Shown here: positions 28,482-60,009 of the stretch, piece by piece
Position numbering within the stretch: the first letter of the stretch is position 1
Layout: each line of letters starts with the position of its first letter
DNA from: a bacterium
Lineage (GTDB): Bacteria > UBA8248
NCBI GenBank assembly: GCA_965202625.1
Contig: CBDBBI010000010.1
Location: 960,001-1,024,000, forward strand
Length of the DNA stretch: 64,000 bases
Reading direction: 5' to 3'
The notes under the pieces: model-generated
Seen by the model: only the letters and a program-made list of their open reading frames with translations
What the model was told of the DNA's origin: nothing
Database searches by the model: none
Program-made: the position numbers and the translations under genes

Positions 28482-29572
28482 GGAGATTTTTGAGGTTTTT
28501 TTCAGCGGCGTTTACGCTGTCGTTTGTCCTGACGGGCTGCGTTCCGTACCTTCCGGCGGCGCGGGTTCCGTACCCTACGGCGGCGCGGGTCTCATGCAGA
28601 TTGCACACTCCGTTCTTCTTCAAGCGCGCCTCGGCGGCGTCCGTTGCCCATTGTCTTGCACTCGGGGCGGACGTGAAGGCGCGCGACTTTTACGGAATGA
28701 CGCCCCTGCACAGGGCGGCGTGGCACAGCAATACGCCCGGTGTCGTGAGGGTGCTCCTGAGGGCCGGAGCGAACGTCAACGCGAAAGACAAGGACGGATG
28801 GACGCCCCTGCACTTCGCGGCGCGGTACAGCAATACGCCCGGTATCGTGAGGGTGCTCCTGAGGGCCGGAGCGAACGTCAACGCGAAAGACAAGGACGGA
28901 TGGACGCCGGGGGATTTAGTGATAAGAAACGCCGCCCTCAAGGGGATGGACGTCTATCGGCGGCTTAAGTGGAAGCGGGCGAGGCAACGGGAGCGGATAA
29001 AACAACGGGAGCGGGCGAGGCAACGGGAGCGGATAAAACAACGGGAGCGGGCGAGGCAACGGGAGCGGATAAAACAGCGGGAGCGGGCGAAGCAACGGGA
29101 ACGGGTGCGAAGCAACGGGAACGGGCGAAGCAGCGGGAGCAACGGGCGAAGCAGCGGGAAGCGGGCGAAGCAGCGGGAACGGGTGAAAGCAACGGGAGCG
29201 GGTGAAGCAACGGGAACGGGCGAAGCAACGGGAACGGGCGAAGCAGCGGGAACGGGTGAAGCAGCGGGAGCGGGCGAAGCAACGGGAACGGGCGAAGCAG
29301 CGGGAACGTGTGAAGCAGCGGGAACGTGTGAAGCAACGGGAGCGGGCGAAGCAGCGGGAACGTGTGAAGCGTGTGAAGCAGCGGGAGCGGGCGAAGCAAC
29401 GGGAGCGGGCGAAGCAGCGGGAACGGGTGAAGCAAGCGGGAGCGGGAACGTGTGAAGCAGCGGGCAGCGGGAGCGGGCGAAGCAGCCGGAGCAGCTTCCG
29501 CAGCAGCTTCTGCGGGGGTGGAAGCGGGGGCTTCAGGAGGAGCGTCAGGAGATAGAGGGAGATTTCGATTAA
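28478..29572 (+). CDS. Ankyrin-repeat lipoprotein with QRERAK repeat tail (frame disrupted within the repeat as assembled)
   Basis: Lipobox VLTGC; two TPLH ankyrin repeats plus cap; terminal EIEGDFD* aligns with NEGRFK* of the adjacent paralog and is in frame with the start. Confidence 0.7.
28973..29484 (+). repeat. 18-bp minisatellite (consensus AAGCARCGGGARCGGGYG), roughly 27-28 units
   Basis: Directly visible tandem repeat; reads QRERAK, TGAGEA or SNGSGR in the three + frames. Confidence 0.95.
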
Positions 29573-29736: not shown

Positions 29737-31650
29737 ATGAAGAGATTCATGGGGACGTTTTCAGCGGCGCTTTTTCTTTTGCTCGCCCCTGCACCATCCA
29801 CGCCCGCTCTGGCGGCGCGGGTCTCATGCGGCTTTCTGACTCCGAACTTCTTCATACACGCCTCGGCGGCGGAAGTTGCCCGTTGTATTGCGGCCGGTGC
29901 GAACGTGAACGCGCGCTCCAAGGACGGAGATACGCCCCTGCACGCGGCGGCGGCGCAAAGCAAGACACCGGCGGTCGTGGCAGCGCTCGTGAAGGCTGGA
30001 GCGGACCTGAACGCGCGGTCCAAGAACGGAATAAAGCCCCTGCACTTGGCGGCGGCGCAAAGCAAAACGCCCGGTGTCGTAGCGGTGCTCCTGAAGGCCG
30101 GAGCGAAGGTGAACGCGAAAGACAAGTACGGAGATACGCCCCTGCACTGGGCGGCGTGGAACAGCAAGACGCCCGGTGTCGTGGCGGCGCTCGTGAAGGC
30201 CGGAGCGGACCTGAACGCGCGGGATGAGAATGGAATGACGCCCCTGCACCGGGCGGCGGCACACAGCAAAACGCCCGAAGTCGTGGCGACTTTGCTGAAG
30301 GCCGGTGCGGACGCGAACGCGCGGGATACTAAGTACGGAATGACGCCCCTGCACCGGGCGGCGGCACACAGCAAAACGCCCGAAGTCGTGGCGACTTTGC
30401 TGAAGGCCGGTGCGGACGCGAACGCGCGGGATACTAAGTACGGAATGACGCCCCTGCACCGGGCAGCGGTATTCAGCGAGACGCCCGGTATAGTGGCAGC
30501 GCTCGTGAAGGCCGGTGCGGACCTGAACGCGCGGGACAAGAACGGAGATACGCCCCTGCACGCGGCGGCGTGGAACAGCAAGACGCCCGGTGTCGTGGCC
30601 GCACTCGTGAAGGCCGGAGCGGACGCGAACGCGCGGGCCAAGAGGGGATTGACGCCCCTGCACGCGGCGGCGGCATTCAGCAAGACGCCCGGTGTCGTGG
30701 CCGCGCTCGTGAAGGCCGGAGCGGACGCGAACGCGCGGGACAAGGACGGATGGACGCCCCTGCACACGGCGGCGGTATTGAGCAAGACGCCCAGTGTCGT
30801 GGCAACGCTCGTAAAGGCCGGAGCGGACGCGAACGCGCGAGACAAGGACGGATGGACGCCCCTGCACCGGGCGGCGGCGAAAAGCAAGACGCCCAGTGTC
30901 GTGGCAACGCTCGTAAAGGCCGGAGCGGACGCGAACGCGCGAGACAAGAACGGATGGACGCCCCTGCACACGGCGGCGGTATTGAGCAAGACGCCCAGTG
31001 TCGTGGCAACGCTCGTAAAGGCCGGAGCGGACGCGAACGCGCGAGACAAGGACGGATGGACGCCCCTGCACCGGGCGGCGGCGAAAAGCAAGACGCCCAG
31101 TGTCGTGGCAACGCTCGTAAAGGCCGGAGCGGACGCGAACGCGCGAGACAAGAACGGATTGACGCCCCTGCACACGGCGGCGAAAAGCAAGACGCCCAGT
31201 GTCGTGGCAACGCTCGTGAAGGCCGGAGCGGACGCGAACGCGCGAGACAAGAACGGAGGGACGCCCCTGCACACGGCGGCGGCATTCAGCAAGACGCCCG
31301 GTGTCGTGGCCGCGCTCGTGAAGGCCGGAGCGGACCTGAACGCGCGAAATGAGGACGGATGGACGCCCCTGCACACGGCGGCGGCGAAAAGCAAGACGCC
31401 CGGTATAGTGGCCGCGCTCGTAAAGGCCGGAGCAGACGTGAACGCGCAGGATGAGGACGGAGTGACGCCCCTGCACGTGGCGGCGGTATTGAGCCAGACG
31501 CCCAGTGTCGTGGCATCTTTGCTGGACGCCGGAGCGAACCCGGCGGCAAAAGACAAAGCAGGCAAAACGCCATGGTATTACGCGAAAGAAAACGCCGCCC
31601 TCAAGGGAACGAAAGCCTATTGGCGGCTGAACGAGGGGCGCTTCAAATAA
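29737..31650 (+). CDS. Secreted ankyrin-repeat protein, 16 repeats plus N- and C-caps
   Basis: GGAGG SD; signal peptide ending ALA; repeats of A.D..G.TPLH.AA..SKTP.VVA.LVKAGAD.N. Confidence 0.95.
   Translation: MKRFMGTFSAALFLLLAPAPSTPALAARVSCGFLTPNFFIHASAAEVARCIAAGANVNARSKDGDTPLHAAAAQSKTPAVVAALVKAGADLNARSKNGIKPLHLAAAQSKTPGVVAVLLKAGAKVNAKDKYGDTPLHWAAWNSKTPGVVAALVKAGADLNARDENGMTPLHRAAAHSKTPEVVATLLKAGADANARDTKYGMTPLHRAAAHSKTPEVVATLLKAGADANARDTKYGMTPLHRAAVFSETPGIVAALVKAGADLNARDKNGDTPLHAAAWNSKTPGVVAALVKAGADANARAKRGLTPLHAAAAFSKTPGVVAALVKAGADANARDKDGWTPLHTAAVLSKTPSVVATLVKAGADANARDKDGWTPLHRAAAKSKTPSVVATLVKAGADANARDKNGWTPLHTAAVLSKTPSVVATLVKAGADANARDKDGWTPLHRAAAKSKTPSVVATLVKAGADANARDKNGLTPLHTAAKSKTPSVVATLVKAGADANARDKNGGTPLHTAAAFSKTPGVVAALVKAGADLNARNEDGWTPLHTAAAKSKTPGIVAALVKAGADVNAQDEDGVTPLHVAAVLSQTPSVVASLLDAGANPAAKDKAGKTPWYYAKENAALKGTKAYWRLNEGRFK
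29911..31545 (+). repeat. 102-bp tandem repeat array (16 units; two of 105 bp, one of 99 bp)
   Basis: Near-identical DNA units encoding the 34-aa ankyrin repeats. Confidence 0.95.
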
Positions 31651-32383: not shown

Positions 32384-32836
32384 CTAGCCGGGAATCTTCT
32401 CCCTCGCATCTTCTTCCATCCATTCGTCTTCCACGTAGATCGTCTTTGCGGCATCCCGGTTCGGGCAATCGCCATAGGTAAAGACGAGCTCGGCGTCCTC
32501 CGTTTCGCTCGGATTGTAAAGCCCGTGAATCTCGCCCGCCGCGCAATATACGAACGTGCCGGTCGGTACCATGTGCTCTTCCTTCTCCTCTCCCATCCAA
32601 ACGACAATCGGGCCTTTGACGATGTAGAACGTGGCGTCGCACACGTGATAGTGCCTCTGGTTGCGGCCCTGGGGGGGAATGATGGTGCGCCCCATCGTGA
32701 TCGTTCCCGTGCCGGTGGAGTGGCTGTCCACCCCCCACGCGATGATGAGGGGCGGCTCGTATTTTTTGTCCACGCCGATGGCCGTGGAATCAATCAGACA
32801 CCAGCGCTGTTTCGTGGGTGCGGACAAAGCGGACAT
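32384..32836 (-). CDS. Cupin domain protein
   Basis: NQRHYH and GEIHGLYN cupin motifs; AGGAG SD before MSALSA. Confidence 0.85.
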   Translation of the reverse strand: MSALSAPTKQRWCLIDSTAIGVDKKYEPPLIIAWGVDSHSTGTGTITMGRTIIPPQGRNQRHYHVCDATFYIVKGPIVVWMGEEKEEHMVPTGTFVYCAAGEIHGLYNPSETEDAELVFTYGDCPNRDAAKTIYVEDEWMEEDAREKIPG

Positions 32837-32956
32837 GGAGACTCCTTTTGATGGCGGATGACGTGAAATTTCCAAAAGTGCGAACTCCCTGGTTCTCGGA
32901 AGCCCGTGTAATCTAACCGCTCGACTCTCGGAGCGCAAGGAGAGAAGCCCGTATGC

Positions 32957-33976
32957 TCATCCCTCCAGGAACAGCTGCACCTCTCTCAGCAGCTCCATTC
33001 TGCGCTTTTCGAGCTCCATGAAATGCGTGCCGTCGTTGATGATGACGTAGCGCTTGCCCCGGCTGTTGCGGAGCGCCTGATACAGTCCCCACGCCTCCGG
33101 GTCGTCCGAGGCGCCATCCTGATCCCCTCGGATGAGGAGAACGGGACACGTTATCCGGCCTGCATCATAGAGGGGCTTGTTCCTCGCCCGATCATACAAG
33201 TCCAGCAAGGAGCCATTCGCCAACCGAAAAGCGGGCGTCCGGCGCTTGGCTCCCTCCGGGTCATGGCGAAGGAGGGCCTGGAAATACGCCTTCACCACCT
33301 TGGTCTCGCGCCATCTGTGGTGAGCGTCTCCCGGTATATGTCCCCACCATCGCGCGCACACGTCCTTCTCCGCGCACCAGGACCAGGCGCCTCGCCTGGC
33401 GTCAAATTCACCGGGGCTTTTGGGGTCTTCCAGCTGGCGCGCGCGCAAGGGGTTATCATAGGCGTAATAGGGAGCGTAAAGGACGAGCCTGTCTACGCCC
33501 GCCATGTTGTCCGCCGCATAGGCCGGCGCCGTCGTCGTGCCCCAAGAACGGCCCAAAATGGCGATTTTGCTCACGCCCCGCCTGTCAAGGATGAAGTCCA
33601 CCGCCGCTTTGACGTCCCTTACGGCCATCTTGCCAGGTATTGCGGGAGGTTGACCCCTGGGGCTTTCGAACAACTCCCTGGGCCAGGTGGATTCGCCAAA
33701 GCCCCGAATCGAGAGCGCGAAGACGTCAAACCCGCGCGAGGCGACGTAGTCCATCCACGAATAGCCGGAAACTGGAAGGTCATACGCCACGGGGCCGGGC
33801 GCCATCCGTCCGTGCACGAAGAGCAGCGTGGCCCGTTCTCCGAATTTTCTCTTCCCCTTTGGACGCTTCTCCCTTACGTGCAGCCTGACGTCAGAATCGA
33901 GCGAGGGGACGTAGTGATCGATTCTCTCCACCCCCCTCAAGGCGGCGTTCTTCCGCAGCGAAACGCTCACGCCCAA
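32957..33976 (-). CDS. Alpha/beta hydrolase
   Basis: LFVHG, RGFGES, GRSWG nucleophile elbow, IRGDQD, GTHF. Confidence 0.88.
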   Translation of the reverse strand: MGVSVSLRKNAALRGVERIDHYVPSLDSDVRLHVREKRPKGKRKFGERATLLFVHGRMAPGPVAYDLPVSGYSWMDYVASRGFDVFALSIRGFGESTWPRELFESPRGQPPAIPGKMAVRDVKAAVDFILDRRGVSKIAILGRSWGTTTAPAYAADNMAGVDRLVLYAPYYAYDNPLRARQLEDPKSPGEFDARRGAWSWCAEKDVCARWWGHIPGDAHHRWRETKVVKAYFQALLRHDPEGAKRRTPAFRLANGSLLDLYDRARNKPLYDAGRITCPVLLIRGDQDGASDDPEAWGLYQALRNSRGKRYVIINDGTHFMELEKRRMELLREVQLFLEG

Positions 33977-55416: not shown

Positions 55417-55437
55417 AATGAACACGGAGGCCGCTTG

Positions 55438-55710
55438 ATGAGCCGAGCGCTGGTGATGGACTCAAAGGACAATGTGGCCACCGTGCTTGAGGACATCGCT
55501 CCTGAGCAAGACGTAGAAATTGAGGGTGGTGAGAAAACATGGACGATCCGCGCTACGGAAACGATTCCTTTTGGCCATAAAATCGCGCTGCGAAAGATAT
55601 CCGCAAACGCGAAAGTGCTCAAATACGGCGAAGTCATCGGCGCCGCCACACAAAGCATATCCCCTGGCAGGCACGTCCACGTCCATAACATGAAGAGCAC
55701 CCGAGGCTAA
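55438..55710 (+). CDS. UxaA/SuyA-family SAF-domain small subunit
   Basis: DNVAT, IPFGHKIAL, KYGEVIG, G.HVHVHN. Confidence 0.9.
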   Translation: MSRALVMDSKDNVATVLEDIAPEQDVEIEGGEKTWTIRATETIPFGHKIALRKISANAKVLKYGEVIGAATQSISPGRHVHVHNMKSTRG

Positions 55711-55714
55711 GCAC

Positions 55715-56893
55715 ATGCCCAGGAAAAGGGGCGCTCCCACCTTTTGGGGCTACAGAAGGCCGCAGGGACCTCCGGGAGGCCGGAATCACCTGGCCATCGT
55801 CAGCGCCATGGACAATTCAAACCCCATCGTTCGCAGAATTGGCGCACTAGTGCGAGACACCACGTCTGTTAACACGTCATTCGGACGCGCACTTATGGGC
55901 GAGGACGCGGAACAGCATTGGCGGGTGATGGGGCATACCGCCGCCCACCCGAACGTAGGCGCCGCCATCATCGTCAGCCTCGAGCCCAAGAGTGCGGACG
56001 CCATCGCGGAAGTCGCTGCGAGAACCTCGCCCTGGATGCCCTTAGAGTCCGTGAACATCCAGCAAACCGGAGGCACACTCACCACAACTGCCCATATCAT
56101 CGAAATCGCCAAGAAACTCTTAGCCCACCTCGCGTCCGCCAGGCGCGTTCGCTGCGAGTTGAACGAGCTCACCATCGGCGCAGAATGCGGGGGGTCGGAC
56201 ACGACGAGCGGCGTCGTCTCAAACCCCGTGACGGGAATGGTCGCCGACAGGGTGGTGAGAGCGGGCGGGTCGGTTATCTTCTCCGAGACGCTGGAAATTG
56301 TGGGGGCCGAGCATTTACTCGCCCGCCGGGCCGCGGACAGAAAAACCGCCCGGAGAATTATCACTTCCGCGAAACGCGCCGTCGACTACGCCGCAAACAT
56401 CGGCGTAGATTTCATCGGTTCGAACCCGGCCCCGGACAACATCAGGGGTGGGCTTTCGTCCATTGAGGAAAAAAGTCTGGGCGCCATCAAGAAAGCGGGA
56501 GAGCATCCCATCGTCGAGGTCGTCGGCGTAGGCGAACGTCCCTCGAAAAAAGGCGTCATCTTCGCCGATGCCCCTTGCGCCGGCGTGGAGAACATCTCCT
56601 CGCTTGCAGCCAGCGGCGCGCAGGCGATTATTTTCTCGACAGGAATCGGAAATCCCATCGGACATCCTGTCTCTCCCACCATCAAAGTGACTGGGAATCC
56701 TCGGACCGCCCGGGCGATGGCCGAGAACATTGACGTGGACATCAGCGGCGTCATGGAGGGAAAGATGCGCATTGACGAGGCGAGGGATTTGCTCGAGAAA
56801 GAACTCATTGACGTGATGAGCGGAAAACTCACCACATCGGAGATTCTGGGCGAGACGGAACTCACGGTCAGCCGGGCCGCGCTCAGCCTCTGA
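55715..56893 (+). CDS. UxaA/SuyB-family dehydratase or sulfo-lyase large subunit
   Basis: GYRR..G..G.RNH, HPNVG, ECGGSDTTSG..SNP, GGLSSIEEKSLG. Confidence 0.88.
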   Translation: MPRKRGAPTFWGYRRPQGPPGGRNHLAIVSAMDNSNPIVRRIGALVRDTTSVNTSFGRALMGEDAEQHWRVMGHTAAHPNVGAAIIVSLEPKSADAIAEVAARTSPWMPLESVNIQQTGGTLTTTAHIIEIAKKLLAHLASARRVRCELNELTIGAECGGSDTTSGVVSNPVTGMVADRVVRAGGSVIFSETLEIVGAEHLLARRAADRKTARRIITSAKRAVDYAANIGVDFIGSNPAPDNIRGGLSSIEEKSLGAIKKAGEHPIVEVVGVGERPSKKGVIFADAPCAGVENISSLAASGAQAIIFSTGIGNPIGHPVSPTIKVTGNPRTARAMAENIDVDISGVMEGKMRIDEARDLLEKELIDVMSGKLTTSEILGETELTVSRAALSL

Positions 56894-56941: not shown

Positions 56942-57454
56942 CTAAAAACCCATTCCCACGATGAGTCGATTCCAGGTGTTAATAAGCGCAACGGTGCCAA
57001 ATAGTTCCACTATCTGCGTTTCTGAGAAGTGCGCCCTCAGCGACTCAAAAGTCTCATCCGAGACGCTCACGCCCTTCGTACTCTCCTCGCAAAGGCGCAA
57101 CGCCGCTTTTTCCCTCTCATCAAAGAGGTCGCTCAAGGAACCCTCTTGTGCCGCCTTCGTCTTCTCGTCCCCCACCTTGCGCATCCGCGCCATGTTGGAA
57201 TGCATGTTCACACAAAAATGACATCCATTGAGCACCGACGCGCGAATGTTCAGCACCTCCTTGAAGCCGACGTCGATCTCTCCCGGGCCATCCGCCACCG
57301 TGGTCAAGCTCAGCAGCGAGCGCAAAAAGGCCGGCTTATGGGCCAAAGCTTTCACCGGAGGAATCACAACGCCGAATTGTTTTTGCAAATTCTCCATGAT
57401 GCGCTTCGCCGACGCTTCCGCCTGCTCCGGCTCCAACAAGGAAATACGCGCCAT
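56942..57454 (-). CDS. AhpD/carboxymuconolactone decarboxylase family protein
   Basis: S.LNGCHFCVNMH, LR.HFSE.QIVEL, INTWNR; AGGAGG SD. Confidence 0.9.
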   Translation of the reverse strand: MARISLLEPEQAEASAKRIMENLQKQFGVVIPPVKALAHKPAFLRSLLSLTTVADGPGEIDVGFKEVLNIRASVLNGCHFCVNMHSNMARMRKVGDEKTKAAQEGSLSDLFDEREKAALRLCEESTKGVSVSDETFESLRAHFSETQIVELFGTVALINTWNRLIVGMGF

Positions 57455-57696
57455 TTCATCCTCCTTATATTGATTTTCGTATGAATATACGCCTGCGCAT
57501 GAGAGACATTCCATTTTTCTCACACTGATATTTACGCCACCTTGACATCCCCATCAATGAACGCCCCAAAACCATTCAACGATGAGCGCAAATGAGCAGG
57601 AAGCGTAAAATATCCTCTTCTGCTAGATTACCACACCTTGTACTCTCCGCTTACCCAGGCGTGCGCCTTAAAACGCAAGAAGGATGAAAACTGCCT

Positions 57697-58524
57697 ATGA
57701 ACAAGCGAATTTCCCTGTGGCAAGCCGCTTCTCTCATCAAGGATGGAGACACCATCAGCCCTGGCGGCACCCTTCTGCACAGAACGCCCTCCGCCCTCGT
57801 GCGCGAAATCGCGCGCTCACGTATCCGGGGGCTGACGCTCATCAAACCCTCTCCTGGCTACGACGCCGACCTTCTTTGCGCGGCGGGGGCTGTGAGCAGG
57901 GTGGTCAGCGGCATCGTCACGTTTGAAGCGGAATTCGGGTCGGCGCCCCATTATCGAAAGGCGATCGAAAAGGGATTGGCCGGCCTTACCGAACACGCCT
58001 GAGCTAGTGTTCTCGCCGGGCTGCGGGCCGCAGCCTACGGCATCCCCTTTCAGCCCATCCGTGGGTTCAAGGGGAGCGATATACCGGAGCAAAGCGGCAT
58101 CTTTACGATCGAAGATCCATACACGAAAGAGGAGCTCTACGCGATTCCCGCCATGAAGCCGGACTGGGCGTTAATTCACGCCCCAAAATCAGACGCGCAG
58201 GGAAACGCCCAAATTCTGGGCAACCAGCATTTCGACGTCGAAATGACGCGCGCGGCGCAAAAGGGGGTGATCCTCACGGTCGAGAAAATCGTAGCCCCGG
58301 AAGAAATTGCATCCGAGCCCGAGCGAACAGCCATTCCAGGTTTCCTCGTAAAGGGGGTTGTAGAAACGCCAGGCGGTGCCTCGCCTTGCAGCTGCCATCC
58401 GTCCTATGGGGTCGACAAAGATGAAATGGACCGCTACATAGCCCTGACCCAAAAAGAGGGGGGACTCGAGGAGTATCTTGCGAGCACGGATAAAACGGGC
58501 GCGCAAGATGGGACGACGAAATGA
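57697..58524 (+). CDS. Family I CoA-transferase alpha subunit (GctA/PcaI-type), 275 aa, with in-frame TGA at 58000-58002 (probable Sec)
   Basis: Reading through the TGA gives continuous IKDGD..GG...R.P..L, EHA-U-ASVLAGLRAAAYGIPF...GSD, PD.ALIHA..SD..GN, P.GA.P.SC; hairpin after the UGA. Confidence 0.85.
58015..58041 (+). promoter_or_regulatory. SECIS-like hairpin GCCG-GGCUGC-GGGCC-GCAGCC-UA-CGGC
   Basis: Stem begins 12 nt after the UGA; G-starting apical loop 22 nt after the UGA. Confidence 0.55.
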
Positions 58525-59279
58525 CGAAGGGTAATCGCGTCACATCGCTGCCCGAACACGTAATTCGCGCTGGCAACCAAATGGCCGTCTCGCTCTCGCG
58601 CCTCATTGAGGACGGGAAAAAAGTCTTCCACGGAGTCAACTCGCCACTTCCGATGGTCGCGATTTTTTTGGCCCAAAAACGACACGCCCCCCACTGCGTG
58701 CTCATTGAAGTTGCCGGCTCCGTGGACCCGAAACCACGCTTTATGCCAAAAAGCACAGCCGATCCCGAACTATGCTACGGCGCGGCCTCCCTGTTCTACA
58801 ACCCAGACACTTACGATCTTTTCGCGCGCGGCGGAATAGACCTCGCCTTTCTGGGCGCTGCCCAGCTCGACAAGCAAGGACGCGCCAACATGAGCTACAT
58901 CGGCAACCCTATTCACCCGAAAGTCCGTTTTCCTGGCGGGGGAGGAGGCGCCGTCATCATGCCCCAAGTAAAGCGAACCGTCATTTGGCGAACGACACAC
59001 GATAAGCGATTTTTCGTGCCGAGGGTGGACTTTTCAACCCAATCCGGAAACCTCAGCCACGTGATAACGCCCATCGCCGCACTTGAAAGAAAACCAACAG
59101 GGCTTGAAATCTCTAGCGTTCACGCTGGTCACTCAATGGATGAAGTGATCGAGAAGACCGGGTTTGGCTTGCAACGTCCAAGAATTGTTGCGCAAACCGC
59201 CCCGCCGAGTGCCGAGGAGCTGGAGGCTTTGGGTGAACTCGACCCGGACGGCGTGCGTTTTTCAGAGTTCCGCATATAA
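58521..59279 (+). CDS. Family I CoA-transferase beta subunit (GctB/PcaJ-type)
   Basis: LIEVAG catalytic-Glu region, FLGAAQLD..G.AN, PGGGG, FV.RVDF, TGF; ATGA overlap. Confidence 0.88.
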   Translation: MTKGNRVTSLPEHVIRAGNQMAVSLSRLIEDGKKVFHGVNSPLPMVAIFLAQKRHAPHCVLIEVAGSVDPKPRFMPKSTADPELCYGAASLFYNPDTYDLFARGGIDLAFLGAAQLDKQGRANMSYIGNPIHPKVRFPGGGGGAVIMPQVKRTVIWRTTHDKRFFVPRVDFSTQSGNLSHVITPIAALERKPTGLEISSVHAGHSMDEVIEKTGFGLQRPRIVAQTAPPSAEELEALGELDPDGVRFSEFRI

Positions 59280-59367
59280 GTTTCGTAAACTACGGAAAAT
59301 GGGGAGTCGCTTCATTCCCCACCTCCCTCTGGGGGCCTTGCAGAGTGGCGGATTCAGGAGGATTCAC

Positions 59368-60009
59368 ATGGACAATGCATTGGTGCATCATCTGAGGAAC
59401 TACTCGACCTGTCAGGCGGCGGACGCCTTCGACAAATTAAACATCAAAGGCCATATGCCCGACATTGTCCTGCTCTCCCCAGACCCTGATTACAGAATGG
59501 CGGGAGAAGCGCATACCGTTCAGATGATTCCCGCCGGTGGCGGGAATCTGTCCAAACGAGAGACCCACCACATCGACGCGGCACCTGAGGGGAGCATCGT
59601 CGTCATCAGCGTCCCCTTCGGGGTGACGACGGCCAACTGGGGCGGCATGATGAGCACGCGGGCGAAGGCGATGAGACTGGGCGGGGTCGTCCTTGACGGC
59701 CGGGCTAGGGACATCGAAGAACACCGCCGGATGGGATTCCCCGTGTTCTCCAAGGGCATATCGGTTCATGGCAGCGGAGGATACACGGTCCCCAGCGGCG
59801 TGGGGCTCCCGATCAACTGCGGGGGCGTTGCGGTGAGGCAGAGGGACATCATCTTGGGAGACGTCAACGGCGTGGTCGTGGTTCCAAGGGAGAGGCTCAA
59901 GGAGATCATCGAGAAAATGGATGAATTGGCAAGAATTGAAGAAAAAATCATCCACGAGCTGGAAAGCGGCGCGCCCATCGGCGAAGCGTTCGAGAAGTAT
60001 CGAGGCTAG
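59368..60009 (+). CDS. RraA-family / 4-hydroxy-4-methyl-2-oxoglutarate aldolase-like protein
   Basis: DA, WGGMM, G.V.DG.ARD, GFPVF, GD.NGVVVVP; AGGAGG SD. Confidence 0.88.
   Translation: MDNALVHHLRNYSTCQAADAFDKLNIKGHMPDIVLLSPDPDYRMAGEAHTVQMIPAGGGNLSKRETHHIDAAPEGSIVVISVPFGVTTANWGGMMSTRAKAMRLGGVVLDGRARDIEEHRRMGFPVFSKGISVHGSGGYTVPSGVGLPINCGGVAVRQRDIILGDVNGVVVVPRERLKEIIEKMDELARIEEKIIHELESGAPIGEAFEKYRG

Follow-up and report, generated by a model that had tools for sequence, protein, structure and literature searches.

A gene for the alpha subunit of a coenzyme A (CoA)-transferase-fold enzyme, in a bacterium of the UBA8248 lineage, is crossed by a single in-frame TGA at codon 102. Is this codon read as selenocysteine (Sec), and what would such a residue do in an enzyme of this fold? 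The gene lies in a stretch of 64,000 nucleotides (assembly GCA_965202625.1, contig CBDBBI010000010.1, positions 960,001 to 1,024,000) that we refer to as the window, and in whose coordinates all positions below are given. A first-pass annotation of the window had proposed a probable selenoprotein at this locus. Comparison with related loci suggests that the TGA is almost certainly a real Sec codon, located in the active site of a CoA-transferase fold. We also consider it very probable that three things hold together: Sec is decoded by way of a downstream hairpin, the product is a full-length CoA-transferase-fold alpha subunit, and the selenol, or the thiol of the cysteine-containing homologs, is probably catalytic on a CoA thioester.

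The TGA codon and its relatives

The alpha-subunit gene was initially described as two open reading frames (ORFs), 57697-58002 and 58153-58524, lying in the same frame, and both were recovered exactly. The 50 codons between them (58003-58152), which had been reported as open, are indeed so and encode LRAAAYGIPFQP...GSD. Translation with TGA read as U (276 positions) identifies codon 102 as the sole internal stop of 57697-58524, within EHA-U-ASVLAGLRAAAYGIPFQP, in agreement with the earlier claim that the TGA in EHA-TGA-ASV is the only lesion. A match to PF01144 (CoA_trans) covers residues 9-223, across the TGA (E=2.4e-21), indicating that the frame is not open by chance. The gene itself terminates in another TGA, which shares the sequence ATGA with the start of the beta-subunit gene. 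This gene and the RraA-like gene downstream of it are both whole, as had been stated.

A contig from a different study spans 57686-58277 with 0 differences, which excludes an assembly error. Contigs from RNA libraries cover 57638-58003 and 58367-58733 and, being contigs, are no proof of transcription; no significance attaches to the stretches that they leave uncovered. The wider region 57400-59400 is contained almost entirely in the runs of one study; 60-66% of its sampled words occur in the runs of a second study, labelled 'sponge metagenome', and 34% in a marine metatranscriptome library.

Related loci were collected by scanning one genome per species with a search built on 10 close alpha sequences, and the best 80 of 360 confirmed relatives were analyzed. 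The codon aligned with codon 102 was located in each locus by tblastn with the window's protein. It is TGA in 45 of the 80 loci and TGC or TGT in 35, and no other residue is encoded at this site. The first-pass annotation had held that variable non-Cys residues here, or the lack of an aligned TGA in any other genome, would speak against a selenoprotein; the close family contains nothing except Cys or TGA, and the 45 other genomes with an aligned TGA also share a conserved hairpin. Together with the window, these loci yield 46 TGA genes, and three tandem paralogs bring the number of Cys genes to 38.

We also examined 106 protein-database matches. Cys occupies the position of residue 102 in 76 of these, and 19 distant matches (at most 41% identity) have His, Glu, Ser or Asn. 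The remaining 11 begin just past the site, 10 of them 1-7 residues downstream, which is the usual product of a gene caller on meeting a TGA. In public databases, the Sec forms are present only as truncated C-terminal fragments of 166-170 residues that are named 'hypothetical' or 'CoA transferase'.

In a maximum-likelihood tree of 84 alpha sequences (a quick search, with support from the Shimodaira-Hasegawa-like approximate likelihood ratio test (SH-aLRT) only), the Sec forms make up three neighbouring lineages, for which two state changes suffice. These lineages comprise 27 Nitrospinota/Tectomicrobia genes, including that of the window, 4 Chloroflexota/Thermodesulfobacteriota genes, and 15 genes of betaproteobacterial type. 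The Sec lineages are only 45-51% identical to one another and to the window's protein, indicating that the TGA was kept while most other positions changed. All 46 genes have TGA as the internal codon, none has a second in-frame stop, and the frame past the TGA is open for 154-178 codons in each. The terminal stops of the same genes are TGA in 24, TAA in 12 and TAG in 8, with 2 running off the end of the locus.

Some genomes carry more than one form of the gene. Sec and Cys forms are both present in five genomes (G017, G018, G020, G024 and G025), and in three Nitrospinota loci a second, Cys-form alpha gene is located approximately 1.6 kb downstream of the Sec form (L032:4610-5350, L035:4646-5425 and L036:2456-3196). 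Three Sec-form genes that are nested in the betaproteobacterial clade (L073, L088 and L092) derive from metagenome-assembled genomes labelled 'uncultured Streptomycetaceae'. These genomes are only 3.2-4.6 Mb in size, and their labels or binning look doubtful.

The hairpin and the decoding machinery

A hairpin had been noted 12 nucleotides past the TGA, and it is present there: 58015-58025 pairs with 58029-58035 and 58038-58041 to form 7+4 base pairs, which are interrupted by a UA bulge and capped by a GGC loop. Bacterial selenocysteine insertion sequence (SECIS) elements are recognized by the bSECISearch program from a G early in the apical loop and a loop some 16-37 nucleotides past the UGA, and the hairpin at 58015-58041 would presumably be accepted on both counts. 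The 91-nucleotide region that contains it has a folding energy of -44.5 kcal/mol versus -34.0 +/- 3.6 kcal/mol for dinucleotide shuffles (z=-2.97), and 1 of 200 shuffles folds as well.

The hairpin is conserved among the TGA genes at the level of nucleotides. In an ungapped alignment, all 46 share an identical 5' arm, GGCUG, and columns 19-26 past the U of UGA (GGGCUGCG) are near-invariant, the sole change being an A at column 19. This invariance takes in the third positions of Gly and Leu codons. The 3' arm, CAGCC, occupies columns 32-36 in the Nitrospinota, Chloroflexota and Thermodesulfobacteriota genes and columns 29-33, one alanine codon earlier, in most genes of betaproteobacterial type, suggesting that one 5' arm is paired through differing use of three alanine codons. 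Because the 3' arm sits at two registers, RNAalifold returned a compromise structure for the 46 sequences; both hairpins were read straight off the alignment.

The Cys genes provide a comparison. No consensus hairpin was found at the corresponding site in the 38 Cys genes. The third positions of codons Gly108 and Leu109 have an entropy of 0.0 bits in the TGA genes versus 1.78 and 1.56 bits, respectively, in the Cys genes, and as a control within the same TGA genes, other four-fold codons (Ala107, Gly115, Pro120, Gly123 and Gly126) show 1.5-1.8 bits. Local folding energy is -14.5 kcal/mol in the TGA genes versus -10.0 kcal/mol in the Cys genes (Mann-Whitney p=5e-6).

The genome that contains the window encodes its own Sec machinery. 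A tRNA-Sec scores 75.8 bits (gathering score, 47) and is classified by ARAGORN as SeC with anticodon TCA, while selB (361 bits), selA (565 bits) and selD (333 bits) all score above curated cut-offs. All four genes, selA, selB, selC and selD, whose presence the first-pass annotation had left to be confirmed, were thus detected. The selD gene (G000:C10:1611050-1612009, minus strand, locus L012) itself has one in-frame TGA, in the context GG-U-GSK, which is followed after 10 nucleotides by a G+C-rich hairpin with a GGA triloop, a design similar to that of the alpha-subunit gene. Across genomes, selB above the curated cut-off accompanies the TGA form in 40 of 45 cases, versus 16 of 30 genomes with only the Cys form (Fisher p=9e-4).

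One earlier supporting claim did not survive. A second Sec-like gene had been said to lie nearby, and none was found in the window: no Pfam domain extends across the TGA in the 34 other ORF pairs that are joined by a single TGA, have at least 60 codons on each side and have a start codon at least 40 codons before the TGA. The argument for Sec usage in this organism therefore derives from the genome's machinery and its Sec-containing selD, and not from a second Sec gene in the window. The pair at 32387-33976 (minus strand) was rejected as a selenoprotein, as it consists of two genes in one frame, for an alpha/beta-hydrolase and a cupin, that are parted by a TGA and approximately 50 domain-free codons.

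Residue 102, the beta subunit and competing explanations

We compared residue 102 with solved structures of related proteins. In a profile search it aligns with a Gln of GctA, a Gly of AibA and a Glu of IpdA. The Rhodococcus IpdA chains 6CO6 (E) and 6COJ (A) differ solely at the residue aligned with 102, and the PDB title of 6COJ reads 'IpdAB E105A COCHEA-CoA complex'. Using hhalign, Gln100 of E. coli AtoD (PQG motif) lies opposite residue 102, which range arithmetic further equates with Gln99 of pig SCOT (AtoD 15-135 matches SCOT 14-134, with equal lengths). According to excerpts of PMC12817287, the equivalent residue of the trypanosome enzyme, Gln110, hydrogen-bonds bound acetate or succinate beside the Glu-CoA thioester. 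The conserved alpha active-site Gln of family I CoA-transferases is therefore replaced by Sec or Cys in this family, as is the Glu105 of IpdAB-type alpha subunits. Sec had been proposed to lie near the substrate pocket, and the alignment with SCOT Gln99 and IpdA Glu105 bears this out: a location of Sec102 in the pocket for the acyl thioester and carboxylate is strongly supported.

An AlphaFold2 model of the alpha subunit, based on a 10-sequence alignment, has a mean predicted local distance difference test (pLDDT) score of 86.2, rising to 92 around residue 102. Here a strand (96-99) is followed by a helix (102-113) that residue 102 opens, and the first residue of a helix is a common setting for reactive Cys. 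The best solved matches of this model in Foldseek are IpdA, AibA and GctA, with template-modelling (TM) scores of 0.81-0.87. No UxxC or CxxU motif is present around residue 102.

The alpha and beta subunits, encoded side by side, both have the PF01144 fold, although 'CoA-transferase' names a fold here and not an established activity. The first-pass annotation had stated that family I enzymes use a beta-subunit Glu, and the premise that this enzyme does so fails: the canonical site is Val64 in the window and Val or Ile across the family. Two alignments lead to this assignment. The closest solved chain to the beta subunit is AibB (E=2.5e-31), and a single position, Cys56, varies among the five deposited AibB sequences (C, A, S, N or V); Val64 lies opposite this residue, with Glu63 one residue earlier. 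Likewise, when a 14-sequence beta profile was aligned with E. coli AtoA by hhalign, Val64 fell opposite the Glu of the SENG motif, which in family I transferases is the residue of covalent catalysis, and Glu63 fell opposite the Ser. All 75 family beta subunits compared have Val or Ile at the canonical Glu position. The position before it is Glu only in the window's clade (25/25) and is Asn or Ser in the other 50, in Sec and Cys forms alike. Because Val or Ile occupies the catalytic-Glu position, the enzyme is probably not a classical transferase. Judging from these alignments, this is a family without the transferase nucleophile, yet with an invariant Cys/Sec on the other subunit.

Several characterized systems resemble parts of this arrangement. 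The best structural match to the alpha model is IpdAB, the cholesterol ring-cleaving hydrolase of Mycobacterium and Rhodococcus (6CO6, 6COJ and 6CON; TM 0.85-0.87), which is also a two-subunit enzyme with a CoA-transferase fold that is not a transferase, and whose probed alpha Glu105 aligns exactly with Sec102. Glu105, to which Crowe et al. in 2018 are said to have assigned the role of catalytic base, is the residue that was mutated to trap the substrate complex. However, IpdA has Glu rather than Cys or Sec, identity is 31-33%, and no steroid genes are located beside the window's gene. The reaction of IpdAB is a retro-Claisen hydrolysis of a CoA thioester, as described in passages of PMC6678751. 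The closest solved relative of the beta subunit belongs to AibA/AibB, the 3-methylglutaconyl-CoA decarboxylase of Myxococcus xanthus (5MZW). In the sections of PMC7756340 that bear on it, AibAB belongs to the glutaconate CoA-transferase family and works on an acyl-CoA but transfers no CoA, the conserved catalytic Glu having been lost and replaced by AibB Cys56, and a Cys is discussed as general acid. In AibAB, unlike in the window's enzyme, it is the beta subunit that bears the Cys, at the site once held by Glu, where the window has Val64; AibA has Gly at the Sec site. GctAB and the classical family I enzymes (SCOT, AtoDA and CtfAB) share the Pfam family, the fold and the alpha/beta gene order, but have Gln at the Sec site and a catalytic beta Glu where the window's family has Sec/Cys and Val/Ile. 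A likeness of another kind is seen in predicted bacterial selenoproteins in which Sec stands in for an acyl-accepting Cys, such as the CTP-synthase-C-terminal glutamine-amidotransferase-like family (PMC13188914, Table 1). These have a non-thioredoxin fold, a Sec/Cys pair, a SECIS-like hairpin, and a presumed nucleophile rather than a redox centre, although their fold and chemistry are unrelated.

The data strongly support decoding of the UGA by the genome's own SelB and tRNA-Sec, recruited by the hairpin, to give a full-length alpha subunit, together with a translationally coupled beta subunit of the same family I CoA-transferase fold. We further propose that Sec, or Cys in the homologs, would be the catalytic group, a role that appears probable because the beta subunit has Val or Ile in place of the catalytic Glu. 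It may act as a nucleophile on the thioester carbonyl, giving an acyl-selenoester, as a nucleophile on an activated double bond, or as a proton donor/acceptor, as proposed for AibB Cys56 and IpdA Glu105. An AibAB/IpdAB-like enzyme with Sec/Cys as its catalytic group seems more likely than a classical transferase. The narrower proposal that the alpha selenol or thiol replaces the lost beta carboxylate and attacks the CoA thioester, forming an acyl-selenoester or Michael adduct, can be offered only tentatively.

Two other explanations accept a genuine selenoprotein and assign residue 102 a different role. The enzyme could be a classical CoA-transferase in which beta Glu63 is a shifted covalent nucleophile and Sec102, replacing the substrate-binding Gln, tunes binding or the leaving group. 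Glu63 is present in all 25 beta subunits of the Nitrospinota/Tectomicrobia Sec clade, no acyl-CoA ligase is among the genes found adjoining the loci of this clade, and the fold and alpha/beta architecture are those of family I transferases. Nevertheless, two independent alignments put Val64 on the catalytic position and Glu63 one residue before it, the other 50 beta subunits have Asn/Ser at 63 and Val/Ile at 64 in a family that still keeps Cys/Sec, and an invariant Cys/Sec pair would be unexpected of a mere binding residue; we therefore regard this explanation as unlikely. We give still less weight to a redox or regulatory switch, in which Sec102/Cys102 would form a selenenylsulfide with a nearby Cys and be reset by the CxxC of the AhpD-like neighbour. 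This divergent CMD/AhpD-like gene is conserved in 21 of 26 other clade members, Cys61 is invariant in the close family and Cys233 nearly so, and most known selenoproteins are thiol oxidoreductases, according to parts of PMC13188914. However, the CMD neighbour is absent from the other Sec clades, the UxxC and CxxU motifs are lacking around residue 102, and this residue is at a substrate-contact position.

The remaining explanations deny that Sec is inserted. If the TGA were a true stop, the alpha gene would be split and two polypeptides made, with translation restarting downstream. Gene callers do give C-terminal proteins of 166-170 residues that start 1-7 residues past the site, and the 15 genes of betaproteobacterial type have an ATG immediately after the TGA, such that termination and restart is conceivable there. 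In the window's clade, by contrast, GCN or CCN codons follow the TGA and no start codon does. Moreover, all 46 genes have TGA as their internal stop although 45% of their terminal stops are TAA or TAG, the split point coincides exactly with the codon for Cys in the homologs, the hairpin just downstream has frozen synonymous sites, and the TGA form is associated with selB. A split gene is very unlikely on these grounds. A nonsense mutation, pseudogene or sequencing error would fit the finding of only one in-frame stop, and the first-pass annotation had described other broken genes in the window, but this explanation has next to no probability when the same TGA recurs in 45 other genomes of several phyla, both halves are conserved without a second lesion, and the contig from a different study is identical across the TGA site. 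Decoding of TGA as Trp or another sense codon was rejected, as TGA serves as an ordinary stop in these genes and in those beside them.

In addition to the ATG in those 15 genes, and to Glu63, which adjoins the canonical site in 25 of 25 window-clade beta subunits, other points weigh against Sec decoding and a catalytic Sec102. The entropy and folding tests between TGA and Cys genes are uncorrected for relatedness, which the within-gene control does correct. As the hairpin falls within the codons for the conserved GLRAAA segment, its conservation is partly protein constraint, a concern addressed by the third-position test. An Rfam scan of 57950-58120, at E up to 10, found no SECIS family. Full selB is lacking in 5 of 45 TGA genomes: one has a fragment at a contig end, two have EF-Tu-like scores only, and two have nothing at E up to 1e-40, which we assume to reflect incomplete assemblies. 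A snoRNA match on the hairpin in Rfam (11.7 bits) was dismissed as meaningless.

Gene neighbourhood and significance

We examined the genomic context of the alpha and beta subunit genes in the window (Table 1) and in the related loci. In the Nitrospinota/Tectomicrobia Sec clade, tblastn identified the RraA-like gene downstream in 21 of 26 other loci and the CMD/AhpD-like gene upstream in as many (21/26); several of the loci without a match to one of these end at contig ends. The window's CMD/AhpD-like gene also has YciW-related and peroxidase-related NCBIfam matches, below cut-off. Further upstream, the UxaA-like pair accompanies only the closest relatives (the large subunit in 14 loci, the SAF subunit in 13). 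This pair consists of a 91-residue SAF subunit and a 392-residue catalytic subunit, a split that recurs in 13 related loci, and it resembles two-subunit members of the family, not a frameshifted gene.

Table 1. Features of the alpha-subunit locus, in window coordinates.
Feature	Position	Strand	Basis and remarks
UxaA/altronate-dehydratase-like pair, SAF small subunit	55435-55710	+	Pfam SAF, GD_AH_second and GD_AH_C (pair)
UxaA/altronate-dehydratase-like pair, large subunit	55715-56893	+	as above
CMD/AhpD-like gene	56942-57523	-	PF02627, E=2.1e-13; intact CxxC; divergent
Alpha subunit, GctA/AibA/IpdA-like CoA-transferase-fold enzyme	57697-58524	+	275 residues + stop; predicted Sec at 102
UGA codon 102, almost certainly read as Sec	58000-58002	+	context EHA-U-ASV
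SECIS-like hairpin, 11 bp, UA bulge	58015-58041	+	fold and conservation; apical GGC loop 58026-58028
Beta subunit	58521-59279	+	PF01144, E=9e-19; start overlaps alpha stop (ATGA)
RraA-like aldolase/decarboxylase family gene	59365-60009	+	PF03737, E=1.2e-30

In the other clades, the neighbours include an AMP-forming acyl-CoA ligase, a family III CoA-transferase, an enoyl-CoA hydratase, a class II aldolase, and parts of a TctB/TctC transporter. An acyl-CoA ligase or family III CoA-transferase adjoins the genes in several clades, Cys and Sec alike, and such a CoA-activating neighbour would fit an alpha/beta enzyme whose substrate is supplied as a preformed CoA thioester. Overall, the neighbouring genes suggest a carboxylated organic acid as the substrate.

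Elsewhere in the window, a tandem array at 29892-31515 (also at 28692-28908) has a 102-nucleotide unit in 15.9 copies with an 85% match. From its consensus, by eye, this unit looks on the plus strand like a 34-residue ankyrin-type repeat (G-W-T-P-L-H ... G-A-D-A-N). An 18/54-nucleotide array adjoins it at 28974-29492.

We searched the selenoprotein literature and databases for this family, which had been suggested to lie outside the classical selenoprotein families. Table 1 of a 2026 review (PMC13188914), described there as the most comprehensive inventory, covers 119 prokaryotic selenoprotein families and subfamilies. None of these is listed under PF01144, a CoA-transferase fold, ketoacid, oxoacid or oxoadipate, and 'CoA' appears only in the entries for CoA-disulfide reductase, HgcA and a DsbA/crotonase fusion. 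The portions of a 2022 review (PMC9312934) and of the GOS paper (PMC2398784) available to us contain no CoA-transferase-fold selenoprotein. Neither 'CoA' nor 'transferase' occurs in the main text of the deep-Sep paper (PMC12013277), in the parts covered, or in that of the BSepDB paper (PMC13326102), although the BSepDB entries and supplementary tables could list the family. In the accessible sections of Haft's 2022 preprint, 'transferase' is likewise absent and the passages with 'CoA' concern other enzymes. Nothing relevant that links a selenoprotein or selenocysteine to a CoA-transferase or to glutaconate emerged from full-text literature searches. A dedicated model is absent from NCBIfam (June 2026), where only generic transferase models match, far below their cut-offs. 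The suggestion is thus upheld with respect to both the 119-family table and NCBIfam. The novelty lies in the Sec/Cys design of the active site, within a CoA-transferase fold that lacks the Glu, and in the absence of the family from selenoprotein lists; the decoding is standard.

The bacterial selenoproteins known so far are nearly all thiol oxidoreductases or enzymes with a metal centre. To our knowledge, a selenol or thiol nucleophile is not a known catalytic solution in the CoA-transferase superfamily, and it would be outside the usual redox role of Sec. If such a nucleophile does operate here, this would be the first selenoenzyme of acyl-CoA metabolism. A conserved Sec in the acyl-thioester pocket of this fold would bring acyl-CoA chemistry within the reach of selenium biochemistry, and would also represent a third re-tooling of the fold after loss of the catalytic Glu, besides AibAB and IpdAB. 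The Cys-form family, present in Burkholderiales, actinomycetes, Chloroflexota and Nitrospinota, appears to be uncharacterized too, and the Sec/Cys pair therefore points straight to its catalytic residue. Recognition of the family would correct annotation in Nitrospinota, Tectomicrobia, Chloroflexota, Thermodesulfobacteriota and betaproteobacterial genomes.

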